Shown here: positions 2,581 through 26,123 of the stretch, piece by piece
Layout: the number at the start of each line of letters is the position of its first letter
Numbering within the stretch: the first letter of the stretch is position 1
IMG/VR virus record: IMGVR_UViG_2698536428_000017
Source: a virus
Lineage: Duplodnaviria > Heunggongvirae > Uroviricota > Caudoviricetes
Reading direction: 5' to 3' (one strand)
Length of the DNA: 40,320 nucleotides
Notes under the pieces: model-generated
The model's input: only the letters and a program-made list of their open reading frames with translations
Told to the model about the DNA's origin: nothing
The model's database searches: none
Made by a program: the position numbers and the translations under genes

Positions 2581-3332
2581 CAGTTTACCCCGTCGGTACT
2601 GCTTCCACCACGCTGAACACCACCATGAGTGTGTGTATCATCGATTGGCTTGCCATTAGCCTTCACGCTCCCCAAAAACTCAACAGCACCAGTGATTTTT
2701 GAAGCCACACCAGAAACCACAGACCCCACCATGCCCCCCATCCAGGTTAACAGGCCATGAATGGTTACTTTCTCAGAAAAATCAGCCAGAGGGGCAACCA
2801 CATCAAGACCACCTGGAGCGACAATTTTAATTTTCCTGGTATCAGGATTAAGCTCAAAATAGGTGCTGCCGTCATCACTACGCAACTGTGTGGCACTGGT
2901 ATTAATACCGCTAATCTTCCTTGCCTGCGACTGGGGACCGACAATACAAAACGCATCCGATAAATCATGCATTCTGTCATCGACCGACTCCTGTATCCCG
3001 CCACTCTGCCACCAGAAATCAATACAACGATCGGCAAAAATCACCAAACATTCATCACCGGCTTTAACTGGGAACGTTAGCGTACATCCTCCGCCGCGCG
3101 GGAATACCACTGGCACATCCACCAGCAATGGGTAATTTTTGGTAATGCGGTTGCCGTCATTATCCTTTTCAACCGAACGGATAGCAGGCTGCACAACTGC
3201 CGTCACCGCATCAGGATCGAATGACTGAATAATGCCAGGCAAGGCGACACGGATCTGGTTCTTTGTTGTTTCCCGTTCAGATTTGAATGTTTCGGCAAGG
3301 TCGCCGCTGCGGGTCTGGTCAGATACTGCCAT
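2580..3332 (-). CDS. Baseplate central spike / assembly protein V-like
   Basis: 250 aa; segment GDECLVIFADRCIDFWW resembles the OB-fold region of gpV/gp45-type spikes; Gly-rich C-terminus; GGAG RBS upstream of ATG at 3332. Confidence 0.5.
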   Translation of the reverse strand: MAVSDQTRSGDLAETFKSERETTKNQIRVALPGIIQSFDPDAVTAVVQPAIRSVEKDNDGNRITKNYPLLVDVPVVFPRGGGCTLTFPVKAGDECLVIFADRCIDFWWQSGGIQESVDDRMHDLSDAFCIVGPQSQARKISGINTSATQLRSDDGSTYFELNPDTRKIKIVAPGGLDVVAPLADFSEKVTIHGLLTWMGGMVGSVVSGVASKITGAVEFLGSVKANGKPIDDTHTHGGVQRGGSSTDGVN

Positions 3333-3350
3333 TTAGTAGGCTCCAGAAAG

Positions 3351-3374
3351 CAAAAAACCCGCCGAAGCGGGTTT
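3351..3374 (-). terminator. Rho-independent terminator after the two-gene moron
   Basis: Minus-strand RNA reads CCCGC-UUCG-GCGGG followed by U6; the plus strand has no U-tract after the hairpin, so it is unidirectional. Confidence 0.6.
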
Positions 3375-3391
3375 GATAACGTTAATTTTAT

Positions 3392-3787
3392 TCATGAAAC
3401 TCTAGCAGACTTTAGCTGTTCCCAGCGCTCAAAATAGAGTTCAGCAGCCTCGATTGCATCCTGTCCCATCTCTTTCGAAACAGTCACATTCGTCAGATCA
3501 TAGTCAGCTTCATTTCTAGCATCCCGCCACTGGCGAAGTACGAAAGCTAGGGATTTCAGTGTATTTGTCGGGTATGGCTCTGATTTGCACTCTGAGGGCG
3601 TTGACATATAACCCACAGTATTTTTGTGATGCTCATGGGTAAAATGCGGTATGGCAGTAAGTGAGCTAATAGACTCATGTAACATACTGTAATACGCCCT
3701 TGAGATAGCGCTTCGAAATCCACTCTCAATATTTTCAGACAGACATAATCGAGCGGTATCGAGAATCTGATTGCTAGTTACCGACAT
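3392..3787 (-). CDS. Hypothetical protein (moron gene 2), 131 aa
   Basis: ATG start, overlaps upstream ORF by 14 nt; about 40% GC against about 52% in flanking tail genes; no family recognised. Confidence 0.6.
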   Translation of the reverse strand: MSVTSNQILDTARLCLSENIESGFRSAISRAYYSMLHESISSLTAIPHFTHEHHKNTVGYMSTPSECKSEPYPTNTLKSLAFVLRQWRDARNEADYDLTNVTVSKEMGQDAIEAAELYFERWEQLKSARVS

Positions 3788-4547
3788 GGTAGCTCACCCC
3801 CGTATGCAACTGACGCGGAGAGGTAAATCTAGCTAACAGGGAACAATCATCCAGTTTAGATTCAGCGCAGACTCTATCAGCCAAGTCGAAGTTCATTTTG
3901 GCAATAGTTTTAGGCTCAAGATTTTTAATATCAACAACATAGCAACCGCTTCCACTAAGCTGAACGAAACCTGTCGTAGCCTTGTATTCACTTAGCAAGC
4001 CCCAGATTATGGATGCTAAGGTCTGGAACTGTTCCTTCGAGCACTGTGTGGCGCTATAGAAATTATCCATTTCTGCAAGGAGTTCTTCTTTGTGCTTCAT
4101 AGCATTACTCCTGCCTTCTGATTCAGAAAGAAGCTTAATGTGCTCTTCCATATAAAATTTTAACTGTTCACGCTCGCCGCAACGGTACGCCCAACTGTAT
4201 GCGTTGTGACTAAAGAGTTTTGTCCGATACTTCTTTGCCAGCGGGACATAGACATCCTTGAGTTCATTATAGCTAAATGTATTAATTAAAATGTGATGAT
4301 AGTGCATTGCCAACGTTACATCGTTTACTTCTAGGCTTATCCTGAGATAACGTAACGCGCTTTCAATCTTTCCGGTTATTGCATCCAGATAAGATAGTGC
4401 AATGTTGGTAGCAGGCGTTGGAGAGACAGAAAGTTCCTCTCGAATTTTCTTTTCAGTGAAGGGATCTAAACTTTCCCTATCCAATAGAAGCGCATTGAAT
4501 TGTTCAATATATTTTTGCGCTTTTTCTAATGGGATGCCTGCCGCCAT
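3774..4547 (-). CDS. Hypothetical protein (moron gene 1), 257 aa
   Basis: ATG at 4547..4545; low GC; no recognisable catalytic motif; inserted between baseplate hub and spike genes. Confidence 0.6.
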   Translation of the reverse strand: MAAGIPLEKAQKYIEQFNALLLDRESLDPFTEKKIREELSVSPTPATNIALSYLDAITGKIESALRYLRISLEVNDVTLAMHYHHILINTFSYNELKDVYVPLAKKYRTKLFSHNAYSWAYRCGEREQLKFYMEEHIKLLSESEGRSNAMKHKEELLAEMDNFYSATQCSKEQFQTLASIIWGLLSEYKATTGFVQLSGSGCYVVDIKNLEPKTIAKMNFDLADRVCAESKLDDCSLLARFTSPRQLHTGVSYHVGN

Positions 4548-4576
4548 GGATTATTTCTCTTACTAAAGGGATTGTG

Positions 4577-4605
4577 ATTGTGAACTTTGAACAATATCTC
4601 GTCAA
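4577..4605 (-). promoter_or_regulatory. Candidate sigma70 promoter for the moron pair
   Basis: Minus strand TTGACG (4605..4600), 17 nt spacer, CACAAT (4582..4577), about 30 nt upstream of the 257-aa start; -10 match is weak. Confidence 0.3.
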
Positions 4606-4642
4606 CCTTAAAGCGCTCATCTCGGAAGATTGACATCAAACT

Positions 4643-4990
4643 TTAGCGTAACGCCTTTTTACAAGGGAATGATCCGATGATTTTAGGCGCATCCATGCTG
4701 TTCTGCAGAAGCTGGACGTTCAGGAAAGCTTTTCCGTTACGCTTCACAAACTCAAAGCCGTAATTGTTGCCATCGCGAGAAGGCATCAGGCCCATGTTAG
4801 TTTTAACGTTGTCCCAGTCATCTTTCTTACCAAGAAACGTAATCTTCTGTGATGTTACCTGTTCACCGTTGATTTTTGTCCAACCGTTATCAGCTGCATG
4901 AAGTAGATATCCGCCGCATTGCAAATCAGCAAAAGCTGCTGAACAAGAAAATAATAACGAAATTGTCAAAACTAACTTCATACGCTTCAT
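4643..4990 (-). CDS. Small secreted or lipoprotein, 115 aa
   Basis: N-terminal signal peptide (MKRMKLVLTISLLFSCSAAFA, AFA-D cleavage or lipobox-like LFSC); two Cys in mature part; about 42% GC; start overlaps stop of hub-like gene. Confidence 0.6.
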   Translation of the reverse strand: MKRMKLVLTISLLFSCSAAFADLQCGGYLLHAADNGWTKINGEQVTSQKITFLGKKDDWDNVKTNMGLMPSRDGNNYGFEFVKRNGKAFLNVQLLQNSMDAPKIIGSFPCKKALR

Positions 4991-6054
4991 GAATAAATCC
5001 TTTGCTGCGCTGAGGACGAAAGTAGATCAGCCGCGCCACGTGCTTCACACATCATATCCATGTACCACGCCTGCCCCCTTGTGTCGCCAGTGTACATAAT
5101 CCCACGCACAATATAAACGCCATCCGTTGCGATGCTGGCAGGCTGCGATGTGGTGCCGCTTAGCGTGATATTTCCATCCGTGTTCTGGTCGGTGATCTGA
5201 CCACCAGTCATCGCAATATCGTTGTTCGACAAGGCGGTACGATACACGGAAGCCTGATCCAGCTGAATGAGTCCGTTAACCCGGATGTTAGGATTAATAA
5301 GCGCGCGGACGTTTACGCCGTTACCGATAGTCTGCTGTGGCATGCCAATAAGCCCGGTAGCGCTGTTGAGCACAATCGCTTCATGAACATATTCGTTATT
5401 CGCCACCATCTGGCGTTGACCGTCCACAAATTGCCATGTTGCGCCACATTGACCAGCTACGTTATCCATAAGATGCCGCGTCATGCCAAAGAGTACCCGC
5501 CCCCGGGGGAATACAGTAGCAGGCATTTCAGGCGTCAGGCCTTCGGTCGCGCCTTTGGCTTCGAAGTCTTTCATCAGCGCACGGTTCACATCAGCGACCG
5601 TGTAACCGGCAGCCAGCGTCTGTGAGGTTATACTGGTGGCAAAAGCCAGATCAGTATCTGCTGCCTGAATCAGGACGTAGGTATCAACCGGACTGTCTTT
5701 TCCTGTGACCGAGTAGCGAATTTCACCGCTGAAAATCAGTCCGTAGTTGCGGCCATCTCTCTGGCCCACGTCCGCCGCGTCAACTTCCCGCACGGTCCCT
5801 ACGTCGCTTGCTGACGCCTCCGGCGCGATACCGTCGTAACCGGCAATCAGACGCACTTTCGAAAATTCCTGCCCGGTGATTCGGTTCACAGTATCTGCCG
5901 AGAGGTTATAAATTTTGATAGTCCCTACCCGGGACGCGCTGCTGATGTTGAACCAGTCGATCGTAAAGGTGACTTTGAAATCACTTAGCTCAATTCCCTG
6001 ACCGTTCCCGTCCACAAGCTGCAGCTCGAAATGTCTCATCCAGTTCTGTGACAT
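4987..6054 (-). CDS. Baseplate hub-like protein
   Basis: 355 aa ORF after tape measure and small tail genes; size and position only. Confidence 0.45.
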   Translation of the reverse strand: MSQNWMRHFELQLVDGNGQGIELSDFKVTFTIDWFNISSASRVGTIKIYNLSADTVNRITGQEFSKVRLIAGYDGIAPEASASDVGTVREVDAADVGQRDGRNYGLIFSGEIRYSVTGKDSPVDTYVLIQAADTDLAFATSITSQTLAAGYTVADVNRALMKDFEAKGATEGLTPEMPATVFPRGRVLFGMTRHLMDNVAGQCGATWQFVDGQRQMVANNEYVHEAIVLNSATGLIGMPQQTIGNGVNVRALINPNIRVNGLIQLDQASVYRTALSNNDIAMTGGQITDQNTDGNITLSGTTSQPASIATDGVYIVRGIMYTGDTRGQAWYMDMMCEARGAADLLSSSAQQRIYS

Positions 6055-21450: not shown

Positions 21451-21792
21451 TTACTCCTTAGAGCCACCAAACTTGTTACCGATTACTCGCATTGCAGCCC
21501 CACGAATAGCATCCACACCGATCAGCCCAACACCACCACCAATGGCAACAGAAAGCGATTTAGGCCATCCAACATACTCAAGAGCGGATGCAAAGGTCAG
21601 CGTCAGAGCACCACAGAGCAAAATCTCAAGCGTTTTTCGTTTCCAGCCGCCGCCACCGCCAAAATAGGCAATGCGCAAGCCAGCCATAACAATTGACATA
21701 ACCACTGCGCCCAACGGCGTATCTCCACGCCACCAACTTTGTAAGAGTTCCAGTAAGTCAGGCCAGGAATGAGGAGCATTGTGCATTTTCAT
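21451..21792 (-). CDS. Holin, lambda S-like with dual-start MKM motif
   Basis: Start placed at ATG 21792 (MKMHNAP...) preceded by GGAGGTG; track ORF start at 21810 lies inside the RBS; hydrophobic helices. Confidence 0.6.
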   Translation of the reverse strand: MKMHNAPHSWPDLLELLQSWWRGDTPLGAVVMSIVMAGLRIAYFGGGGGWKRKTLEILLCGALTLTFASALEYVGWPKSLSVAIGGGVGLIGVDAIRGAAMRVIGNKFGGSKE

Positions 21793-21893
21793 ACTTCCCA
21801 CCTCCGCCATTACGGGGTGTTGTTGAAAGGCGGGCCCTGCGTATACGCCCGTAGGATTGGGTTATGAGCCGTCCTTCGGTGGGCCCTGAATAC

Positions 21894-22195: not shown

Positions 22196-22630
22196 TCATA
22201 CCAGCGTAGCGCAGTTTTTGCGTAGCGCACTAATACTTTTTTCATCCCTTTGAATTTCGACCTCAGGATCCATCTGAAGGCTCACACCCAGCATGCAGAG
22301 ACACCCCTCAATGAATCCCTCTGCTACCTGCAACTGCTGGCGGATAAATCCTTCAGAACAGCGACGCCGCCGCCCTATCTCACGTTTGCTTAACCCGTAG
22401 ACGTAGTACAGCATAATGACGTCCAGTTCCTCAGGCTTACGGACCTGCTGCAGCCGACAGACGCAAGCATCGATAATCAGGCCATCGTCGTCACAGCAAC
22501 TCAGCCTGCCAGGCGAGCTGCTGACTACCAGCCCTTTAAATCCCGTCGCTATTGGAGCCCAGCTCACTGTGGTGTTGCTATCGGCAGCCCATCCACCCCA
22601 GCGCTCTAAAACCTGTTGAATATTACGCAT
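22196..22630 (-). CDS. Late antiterminator Q (QuuD-like)
   Basis: 144 aa; N-terminus MRNIQQVLERWGGWAA...GFKGL...CCDDD matches recalled QuuD-type Q proteins of E. coli lambdoid prophages. Confidence 0.75.
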   Translation of the reverse strand: MRNIQQVLERWGGWAADSNTTVSWAPIATGFKGLVVSSSPGRLSCCDDDGLIIDACVCRLQQVRKPEELDVIMLYYVYGLSKREIGRRRRCSEGFIRQQLQVAEGFIEGCLCMLGVSLQMDPEVEIQRDEKSISALRKNCATLV

Positions 22631-25448: not shown

Positions 25449-26123
25449 ATGATTGATACTACCGATATCCTTTCTCAAAACATCAAGTACCTGATGGACA
25501 AAGCCAAGATAAGCTCGATAACTGAGCTGGCACGTCGGTTACAGCTGAACCAACCAACGCTACACAGGCTGGTATCAGGAGAGGTGAAAGATCCGAAATA
25601 CGCAACGTTAAAGCAGATCGCCGACTACTTCCACGTGTCACCAATAGACTTGGCAGAAAGGAGCCTTCAAGAAATGGAGAAAGAGGACGCGACAGGTATA
25701 AAAACGTATATTTCTCTTAGGTTTAATAAAGTACCTGTTTTGGGAAACACTCAGCTAGGCGTTGGAGGACTTTGGAGCGACACCCAATATTCAGTAGGTA
25801 GCAGTGATGGTTTCATATACTGGCCGACAAAGGATGAAGATGCATACGCCCTGAAATGTGTTGGTGATTCAATGATGCCTAGAATCAAAGAGGGGGAGTT
25901 CGTAATCGTCGAACCCAACCACGACTACACTCCTGGTGATGAAGTACTTGTGGTTACCCGGGAAGGTGAGGTCATGGTTAAAACCTTCTTGTTCGAACGC
26001 GATGGCCTGTTCCATCTAATGTCTGTAAATGAAGATCATCCACCAGTCAGAGTACCACGCGAAAACATTGAAAAAATCCATTACGTGGCGGGGATCGCCA
26101 AATCCGCGCTACGTATGTACTAA
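25449..26123 (+). CDS. CI-like repressor (N-terminal HTH, C-terminal S24 LexA-like peptidase)
   Basis: 224 aa; HTH region (SITELARRLQLNQPTLHRLVSG); S24 catalytic motifs GDSM and downstream Lys (VMVKTF). Confidence 0.8.
   Translation: MIDTTDILSQNIKYLMDKAKISSITELARRLQLNQPTLHRLVSGEVKDPKYATLKQIADYFHVSPIDLAERSLQEMEKEDATGIKTYISLRFNKVPVLGNTQLGVGGLWSDTQYSVGSSDGFIYWPTKDEDAYALKCVGDSMMPRIKEGEFVIVEPNHDYTPGDEVLVVTREGEVMVKTFLFERDGLFHLMSVNEDHPPVRVPRENIEKIHYVAGIAKSALRMY

Follow-up and report, generated by a model that had tools for sequence, protein, structure and literature searches.

Why would a temperate phage keep two small overlapping genes, apparently with a promoter and a terminator of their own, in the middle of its baseplate operon? 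This question is raised by a cassette lying between the baseplate hub and membrane-puncturing spike genes of IMG/VR virus record IMGVR_UViG_2698536428_000017 (Duplodnaviria; Heunggongvirae; Uroviricota; Caudoviricetes), the whole 40,320-nucleotide stretch of which was analyzed and is referred to as the window herein. The window is a SEN34-like (Brunovirus-type) myovirus prophage of Escherichia coli. Chromosomal prophages of E. coli strains such as BH100 and F11 contain the cassette with 100% identity, and the wider window is ∼97% identical to the BH100N prophage copy. The two genes encode a 257-aa protein and, downstream of it, a 131-aa protein. A first-pass annotation, made from the DNA letters and open reading frames (ORFs) without database searches, had called the pair a moron and guessed at a sensor-effector or toxin-antitoxin (TA) style module. 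We find that the 131-aa protein has a predicted HEPN fold, that its partner is modeled as a tetratricopeptide repeat (TPR)-like protein, and that the pair recurs with its signals in unrelated phage backbones. We hold with moderate confidence that the pair is an undescribed TA-like module, in which a prophage-expressed HEPN effector held by the TPR-like partner would interfere with other phages and protect the lysogen.

Results

The 131-aa protein

The 131-aa ORF matches phrog_5176 (E 9e-40), a group of unknown function, and is, on sequence grounds, a real gene. The window protein alone gave no Pfam or NCBIfam match. When a profile of its family was searched against the PDB, we found the "HEPN domain-containing protein" entries 9xbd/9xbc (E 2.6e-6, with a broader profile reaching 8.6e-11 for 9xbd) and 2hsb, the UPF0332 protein AF0298 (E 5.8e-6). 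Some database sources name the homologues HEPN or UPF0332, and one divergent allele (L127) matches HEPN family PF05168 at E 0.001 and 19.6 bits, slightly below the 22-bit cut-off. Matches of the HEPN profile to IcmE/DotG were dismissed as repeat-driven noise. In the AlphaFold2 (AF2) model of the 131-aa protein (pLDDT 89.7), helices span residues 5-17/21-42, 74-95, and 105-130, with residues 43-73 forming an insert. This arrangement fits the up-down bundle of four helices, interrupted between helices 2 and 3, that characterizes HEPN proteins. The best Foldseek match of the model is 2hsb (probability 1.00, TM 0.68-0.71), with the Sacsin HEPN domain, 1wol, 4nqf, and 2q00 also found. In the RefSeq prophage copy on NZ_CP025703.1 (L005 19982-20424), the 257-aa gene is annotated as hypothetical and the 131-aa HEPN ORF is left unannotated by RefSeq/PGAP.

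To 28% identity, 26 alleles of the family share invariant E21, R25, S29, R30, Y32, Y33, P47, H54, L84, R91, A94, D95, and Y96, of which E21, R25, and R30 are the conserved acidic/polar residues expected in the N-terminal helix of a HEPN domain. The first-pass annotation had looked for an Rx4-6H motif and found none. The same was true of all 26 divergent alleles, in which no His lies four to six residues past R91 and the +5 position is an invariant Tyr (R91-N-E-A-D95-Y96). The resulting R-x3-D-Y is common to the 131-aa protein, 9xbd (RNRSDY), and AF0298 (REESDY). In several cases within the HEPN-T (NT-associated) class, D takes the place of this His, and a conserved His at another position may aid activity (PMC3710099). 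Since the profile matches, the fold, and R-x3-D-Y agree with this description, placement of the 131-aa protein in the HEPN-T/UPF0332 branch is well supported, and the earlier statement that it carries no assignable motif was overturned by profile search and structure prediction. RNase activity is a prediction.

The 257-aa partner

The 257-aa protein has no Pfam, NCBIfam, or PADLOC match, and it matches phrog_17809, a group of unknown function. Its AF2 model (pLDDT 91.8) begins with eight helices in a TPR-like array (7-139). Two long helices come next, then a beta-beta-alpha-beta unit, and the tail at the end is modeled with low confidence. A HMMER scan of the family against 1.84 billion representatives returned 540 matches, about a hundred of which are full-length (245-273 aa). 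The remainder are long TPR proteins aligned over the N-terminal part only, and among the 540 there was no fusion of the C-terminal part to other domains. A BFVD search found only two unannotated phage proteins that share the full-length fold. Only N219 and L222 are invariant in the broad family alignment, and the partner is very unlikely to be an enzyme. The TPR array in the model is a candidate sensor.

Two other readings of this protein were tried and rejected. A degenerate minimal nucleotidyltransferase (MNT; G-S-G...D206) has the wrong spacing and no helix between the strands, its residues are unconserved in the broad family, and there are no nucleotidyltransferase (NTase) matches. The C-terminal tail (..HTGVSY) was considered as a toxin-binding peptide and dropped, as the HEPN gene has its Shine-Dalgarno sequence and start codon embedded there, which explains the conservation at least partly.

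Cassette anatomy and expression signals

On the minus strand, the cassette reads promoter, 257-aa gene, 131-aa gene, terminator (Table 1). The overlap of the two genes reported in the first-pass annotation is present and comprises 14 nt (3774-3787). Together with the Shine-Dalgarno sequence inside the upstream gene, it would imply translational coupling. The cassette GC content is 42.2%, close to the earlier estimate of about 40%, vs 51.5% in the surrounding tail genes, and GC at third codon positions is 0.40-0.43 vs 0.58-0.59 in the hub and tape measure genes. The strong unidirectional terminator noted earlier is a hairpin of −14.2 kcal/mol, reported for the minus strand only. Its GC-rich stem of 8 bp is closed by a TTCG loop and followed by a T-run, and the structure lies 17 nt past the HEPN stop codon. 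A GC-rich hairpin of the AAACCCGC..GCGGGTTT type with a T-run is found 3′ of the HEPN stop in 27 of 28 representative alleles, on every backbone examined. An Rfam scan of positions 3000-5200 gave sub-threshold matches only, due to this hairpin.

The promoter required a different kind of evidence. The −35 hexamer begins 58 nt 5′ of the 257-aa start codon and the site matches 9/12, and a consensus scan taken alone performs at chance (four sites vs 5.2 expected in 4 kb), so the candidate promoter of the first-pass annotation does not stand as a single-sequence match. What does stand is its position. In at least 13 independent alleles (<60% mutual amino acid identity), a TTGAC-17/18-TAnAAT-type site begins 58-62 nt 5′ of the partner ATG, and its −35/−10 columns are the only conserved ones in otherwise unalignable upstream DNA. 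Because this position is conserved across alleles, we argue that the predicted promoter is real.

Mobility across phage backbones

Profile-guided scans of IMG/VR yielded 40 and 69 loci. Both genes are adjacent in each of the 102 loci that have both complete genes (102/102), which represent 48 distinct allele pairs. Most of these pairs overlap or abut (−14, −20, −11, −4, or 0 nt); a few larger overlaps came from longest-ORF calls and probably reflect over-extended start codons. In the most divergent alleles, the partner retains ∼23-27% identity to that of the window and the HEPN protein 33-35%. Hub and spike can be 97-98% identical between backbones whose pair alleles share just 29-43% identity, and an 89%/96% allele was found on a backbone with 55% spike identity. 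Both genes are under strong purifying selection, with dN/dS of ∼0.05 for the HEPN gene and ∼0.07 for the partner gene.

The pair is also found in other types of phage. It lies 3′ of a lambda-type tape measure gene with two small ORFs between and directly 5′ of gpM (L015), downstream of a lambda-type tape measure gene (L056), between a 945-aa ORF without a Pfam match and minor tail/J-like genes (L116), after the tail tube gene (L042, L131), directly after a gpK-like gene (L106), upstream of the TerL and portal genes (L115), after a DUF968 gene (L122), and between the portal gene and replication gene A of a P2-like Vibrio prophage (L132). In P2-like phages, gpA-gpQ is a validated defence hotspot (PMC9122126). 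Taken together with the conserved signals, these locations indicate that the predicted promoter and the terminator, retained in most of these alleles, move with the two genes between unrelated types of phage. A moron in the published sense (Juhala/Hendrix) is extra DNA with deviant GC and its own promoter and terminator (PMC3594210), and the cassette, with its predicted promoter, fits that definition. This agrees with the first-pass annotation, as do its absence from related phages and its movement between backbones. Among 50,697 deposited phage genomes only two carry the pair, namely a P2-like element from Vibrio and a phage that is named as a prophage of the Klebsiella strain hosting it.

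The HEPN gene was never seen without an upstream partner ORF, and even the most remote allele (L122) has one. Yersinia phage YP3 (L003 2461-3261) has a 266-aa partner-family gene without a HEPN gene and with only ∼120 nt left to the spike gene. The YP3 protein scores E 8e-60 against the family profile, which contained the YP3 sequence itself, and a relative from outside the profile (L124) scores 1.3e-49. The closest relatives of the YP3 partner (272 aa, Enterobacter asburiae, L124) retain a 127-aa HEPN gene. That a partner-only gene exists and no HEPN-only gene was seen is the asymmetry expected of a toxin and its antidote, and the YP3 protein may be an orphan antidote.

The hub-spike junction as a cargo site

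The first-pass annotation had proposed checking whether related prophages lack the insert at this junction, and they do. Related SEN34-like prophages whose hub and spike are 93-98% identical have different cargo there. In the closest deposited phages, vB_EcoM-689R2, 606R2, 611R5, and 683R1, hub and spike are at 92-93% DNA identity to the window, the cassette is absent, and the slot holds one 170-aa gene. The slot of YP3 holds the 266-aa gene, and that of SEN34 a 138-aa membrane or secreted protein. A hub-adjacent gene for a secreted protein of ∼112 aa is retained in all six phages. Among 5,426 complete E. coli genomes, the junction was matched in 353 and this cassette in only 27 of them. Other occupants include a 79-aa DUF4282 protein and very divergent pair alleles of 258+123 aa, whose 123-aa member is "HEPN domain-containing" in RefSeq, and 243+140 aa. 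Because such varied occupants sit in related backbones, we regard the hub-spike junction as a cargo hotspot.

Several occupants deserve separate mention. In E. coli 2018-05-5CC (L128 808-1798), a YafO-family toxin gene sits in the slot behind a gene for a 190-aa hypothetical protein, giving a TA-like pair in which the upstream partner is unrecognized. The 170-aa cargo protein (L001 2394-2906 of vB_EcoM-689R2; also L002) has an RNNLFH motif near its C terminus, that is, a canonical HEPN-like Rx4H. A Pfam search of this vB_EcoM-689R2 protein gave no match, and because its gene overlaps the upstream secreted-protein gene it would have no private promoter. The 243+140-aa allele of E. coli OkiPb01683 (L129 1117-2270) and the 258+123-aa allele of E. 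coli TL20 (L127 1116-2244) lie on a near-identical backbone and have diverged to the point where BLAST hardly connects them. This points to at least three deep classes of allele circulating at a single locus within E. coli.

A second site may lie at the prophage end. In an Enterobacter-type prophage with a 53%-identical allele (L007 13376-14628), a PIN-domain protein (weak match) lies beside a 238-aa ORF past the tail fibre genes, and other copies carry O-antigen glucosylation (gtrA/gtrB-like) or acyltransferase genes past the tail fibres. The region beyond the tail fibre genes looks like a second cargo region.

The host prophage and flanking genes

The control region of the prophage is lambdoid, with a CI-like repressor, a Q antiterminator, and a holin, followed by the entire morphogenesis operon on one strand (Table 1). 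With a terminator amid the baseplate genes, late transcription would have to be antiterminated to reach the spike, J, and wedge genes. Since the prophage encodes a Q antiterminator, late read-through of the cassette terminator is plausible, and by analogy Q is its likely cause. Q-type read-through of terminators is established lambda biology.

Table 1 Coordinates of the cassette, its signals, and other genes of the window
Feature	Position	Strand	Evidence and remarks
Candidate sigma-70 promoter	4605-4577	−	−35 TTGACG (4605-4600), 17-nt spacer, −10 CACAAT (4582-4577); consensus scan
257-aa partner gene (P257)	4547-3774	−	ORF
Shine-Dalgarno of the 131-aa gene	3793-3801	−	GGGGGTGAG; within 3′ end of the 257-aa gene; read from sequence
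131-aa HEPN-fold gene	3787-3392	−	ORF; phrog_5176
Intrinsic terminator	hairpin 3374-3355, T-run to 3348	−	AAACCCGC-TTCG-GCGGGTTT, then TTTGCTTT
115-aa signal-peptide protein	4990-4643	−	Overlaps hub stop codon; phrog_3443, function unknown
Baseplate hub, upstream flank	6054-4987	−	phrog_196, E 1.3e-88; PF22759, E 3.5e-5
Membrane-puncturing spike, downstream flank	3332-2580	−	PF18352, E 4e-44; GpV Apex motif; spike protein in RefSeq
Tape measure	8955-6946	−	
Dit-like protein	6946-6359	−	
Plug	6359-6057	−	
Sheath-initiator-like gene	2580-2227	−	
Baseplate J	2227-1028	−	
Wedge	1031-351	−	
Q antiterminator, head of late operon	22196-22630	−	PF06530 Phage_antitermQ, E 5.8e-50
Holin gene	21451-21810		
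CI-like repressor gene	25449-26123		

The first-pass annotation had placed two genes between hub and spike. The pair is indeed there, and the interval contains a third gene as well, encoding a 115-aa protein with an N-terminal signal peptide (MKRMKLVLTISLLFSCSAAFA). An intergenic gap of 95 nt (4642-4548) separates this gene from the 257-aa ORF. Homologues at 53-70% identity occupy the equivalent position in vB_EcoM-689R2, YP3, and SEN34. Judged by this placement, the 115-aa gene is a conserved backbone gene that forms the upstream edge of the variable slot and lies outside the cassette. The gene is kept in place in all relatives, yet it is fast-evolving (36-100% identity) and low in GC (42%), and its product, instead of being part of the virion, could have an accessory or exclusion role in the periplasm.

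Discussion

We propose that the cassette works as follows. In the lysogen, its sigma-70 promoter would yield a ∼1.2-kb bicistronic mRNA that ends at the cassette terminator, and during lytic growth Q-modified RNA polymerase would pass this terminator to reach the spike and baseplate genes. The HEPN-T/UPF0332-type four-helix protein would be the effector, presumably a dimeric RNase whose active site comprises R91, D95, and Y96 with H54 and E21, R25, and R30. The partner, non-enzymatic and TPR-like, occupies the MNT antitoxin position and would bind the HEPN protein to keep it silent. The surface of the partner's repeats may detect some component of an invading phage, freeing the effector to cut RNA and abort infection. 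In MNT-HEPN modules, the antitoxin gene is 5′ and the HEPN gene 3′ (PMC3710099), and the pair has the same layout, with the partner 5′, the HEPN gene 3′, and the two overlapping. We read the pair as an effector and inhibitor directed against other phages on account of the hotspot context, the TA/HEPN-like alternative cargo, the allele in the P2 defence hotspot, and the near-absence from deposited phages. The sensor-effector or TA style module suggested in the first-pass annotation fits a gene order in which a non-enzymatic TPR-like partner comes first and a HEPN effector, translationally coupled to it, comes second.

A broader proposal, which we advance only tentatively, is that the cassette is the first known member of an as yet undescribed family of phage-borne immune modules. 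In such modules, a HEPN-T RNase would be paired with a TPR-type sensor-inhibitor in place of the MNT antitoxin, the complete promoter-to-terminator cassette would move between the cargo slots of unrelated temperate phages, the hub-spike hotspot among them, and solo partners like that of YP3 would act as orphan antidotes.

Several observations weigh against an RNase-based module of phage interference. The canonical catalytic His of Rx4-6H is missing, and the RNase activity of D/Y-type HEPN-T proteins is itself a prediction (PMC3710099). No PADLOC 2.0 (PADLOC-DB 2.0) model matched either protein at E ≤ 1, and neither protein is among the DefensePredictor systems as searched by accession and sequence string in the supplements. 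The −10 hexamer of the window is weak, weaker than in other alleles, and the lone promoter scan stood at chance level. In Yersinia alleles (L046, L047, L078, L079), the partner is frameshifted into 47-aa and 223-aa ORFs with the HEPN gene intact. A shortened or frameshifted partner beside an intact HEPN gene is hard to square with strong HEPN toxicity, so that either such toxicity is absent or the partner can do without its N-terminal 40 residues. The 223-aa form (P0065) is listed by NCBI in Yersinia enterocolitica. Lastly, the deep divergence between allele classes together with purifying selection within a class looks like old lineages shuffled by recombination, not rapid positive selection.

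Four other explanations were considered. A plain toxin-antitoxin addiction or stress module, in which a HEPN toxin and a labile TPR-like antitoxin would stabilize the prophage or arrest growth with no phage sensing, accounts well for the 5′ position of the partner, the translational coupling, the strict pairing, and the known partner-only gene. A YafO toxin pair occupies the equivalent slot in other prophages, and HEPN-T proteins are classically TA toxins (PMC3710099). A 257-aa partner with a TPR array of ∼140 residues is, however, unusually large for a simple antitoxin. The cassette is sited in cargo hotspots of phages, of which the P2 defence hotspot gpA-gpQ is one, and very divergent alleles occur on identical backbones. 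The large partner, hotspot siting, and divergent alleles thus fit inter-phage conflict better than maintenance. We regard a pure addiction module as unlikely, although far from negligible, and the two roles are not mutually exclusive. It is improbable, in our judgment, that the HEPN-like protein is a non-catalytic ligand- or RNA-binding adaptor and that the pair serves another lysogenic-conversion or regulatory role. Replacement of the Rx4-6H His by Tyr in every allele speaks for it, as do the lack of a match to any known defence model and the binding or regulatory function of some motif-less HEPN domains (Anantharaman et al., PMC3710099). Yet 13 residues are invariant to 28% identity, eight of them charged or His/Tyr, including E21, R25, R30, H54, R91, D95, and Y96, a pattern typical of an active site, and the R..DY + H pattern is common to UPF0332 proteins, a class predicted to be active via an alternative His (PMC3710099).

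Two further explanations concern lytic growth and the virion. One is that the pair serves the phage in lytic growth, by degrading host or competitor RNA or countering a host defence, and is expressed mainly by late-operon read-through. The cassette lies co-oriented within late tail/packaging operons in several phage lineages, where it would be co-transcribed late under Q antitermination, and phage YP3 retains the partner alone. A predicted conserved private promoter and a terminator would nonetheless be needless for a purely late function, neither of the two deposited phage genomes with the pair is recorded as virulent, and in the P2-like prophage the pair lies outside the late operons, in an old/tin-type hotspot. 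We place the probability of a lytic role marginally below that of the adaptor explanation. The other is that both proteins are structural or assembly components of the baseplate, for which only the hub-spike position argues, together with use of the same slot by alleles at 53-69% identity. Close relatives that form virions, among them the isolates vB_EcoM-689R2, SEN34, and YP3, lack the pair, it occurs at unrelated positions in siphovirus and P2-like backbones, and a HEPN fold and private terminator are ill-fitting for a structural protein. A baseplate role is accordingly very improbable. Our preferred interpretation is still a HEPN effector and TPR-like inhibitor that would guard the lysogen.

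Each component belongs to a known kind, whether moron, HEPN-T protein, or TPR protein. Across PADLOC 2.0, the PHROGs annotations, the DefensePredictor supplements, and full-text searches, we found no description of the HEPN-TPR combination, the family-wide pairing, the mobility of the cassette, or the hub-spike hotspot. A literature search likewise returned no mention of WP_000718774 or PDB 9xbd, nor of UPF0332 together with HEPN. The validated two-gene HEPN system DS-28 of DefensePredictor (163-aa HEPN + 252 aa) was considered as the same system and rejected, since its genes run in the opposite order and share no sequence relationship with the pair.

If confirmed, the cassette would be a new HEPN-based system regulated by a repeat protein rather than a nucleotidyltransferase, and the hub-spike junction of SEN34-like myoviruses, found in 353/5,426 complete E. 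coli genomes, would be a new defence/cargo hotspot. It would also be a clean natural case of a moron moving as a promoter-genes-terminator unit among myovirus, siphovirus, and P2-like backbones. The pair offers a test bed for the RNase activity of D/Y-type HEPN-T (UPF0332) proteins, which has so far been predicted. Carriage of the cassette by clinical E. coli lineages, uropathogenic ones among them, may influence the range of phages able to infect these bacteria. For annotation, the 131-aa gene is missing in at least one RefSeq annotation.

Comparison with known systems

Among TA systems, the nearest relatives are the HEPN-MNT modules (type II/VII; HEPN-T PF05168/UPF0332/COG2250). The 131-aa protein falls in the same HEPN branch by profile and fold (9xbd, 2hsb), shares the SRAYYAM..H, H-x-x-x-I-G, and R-x3-D-Y signature, and is likewise encoded by the 3′ member of an overlapping two-gene operon. 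The difference lies in the partner, which is not an MNT: it has no NTase Pfam match, no G-S...D-x-D, no conserved acidic residues, and a TPR-like fold. Neutralization by AMPylation is therefore unlikely. Unlike those modules, the cassette is also phage-borne with its own predicted promoter and its own terminator.

As a genetic element, the cassette resembles HK97 gene 15, the prototype moron, which lies within the tail operon (PMC3594210). Both are extra units in a tail operon with deviant GC, a private terminator and promoter (the latter predicted for the cassette), and presence in some relatives only. HK97 gene 15 specifies one small membrane protein, gp15, which acts by blocking DNA entry, whereas the cassette would encode two cytoplasmic proteins of TA-like design. 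The hotspots of P2-like phages and P4 satellites offer a parallel for the slot. They too combine a fixed backbone position with interchangeable defence/TA cargo (PMC9122126), and a distant allele of the pair lies in gpA-gpQ of a Vibrio prophage; the slot studied here differs in being the hub-spike junction of SEN34-like myoviruses. The pair was not found among the systems named in the passages of PMC9122126 that were consulted.

For function, the best precedent by analogy is Tha/Ith of Staphylococcus aureus prophages, in which Tha is a HEPN RNase triggered by tail proteins and Ith is the cognate inhibitor that guards against self-harm (PMC11087260). The cassette proteins have no sequence relationship to either. 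Tha is a 301-aa single protein with a canonical RX4H, encoded in the lysogeny region, and Ith is small and antisense-encoded; the partner here is large, TPR-like, encoded upstream, and presumably co-transcribed, and the cassette is found mostly in late operons. One phage carries only the inhibitor as an evasion factor (PMC11087260), and this inhibitor-only phage parallels YP3 with its partner gene alone.

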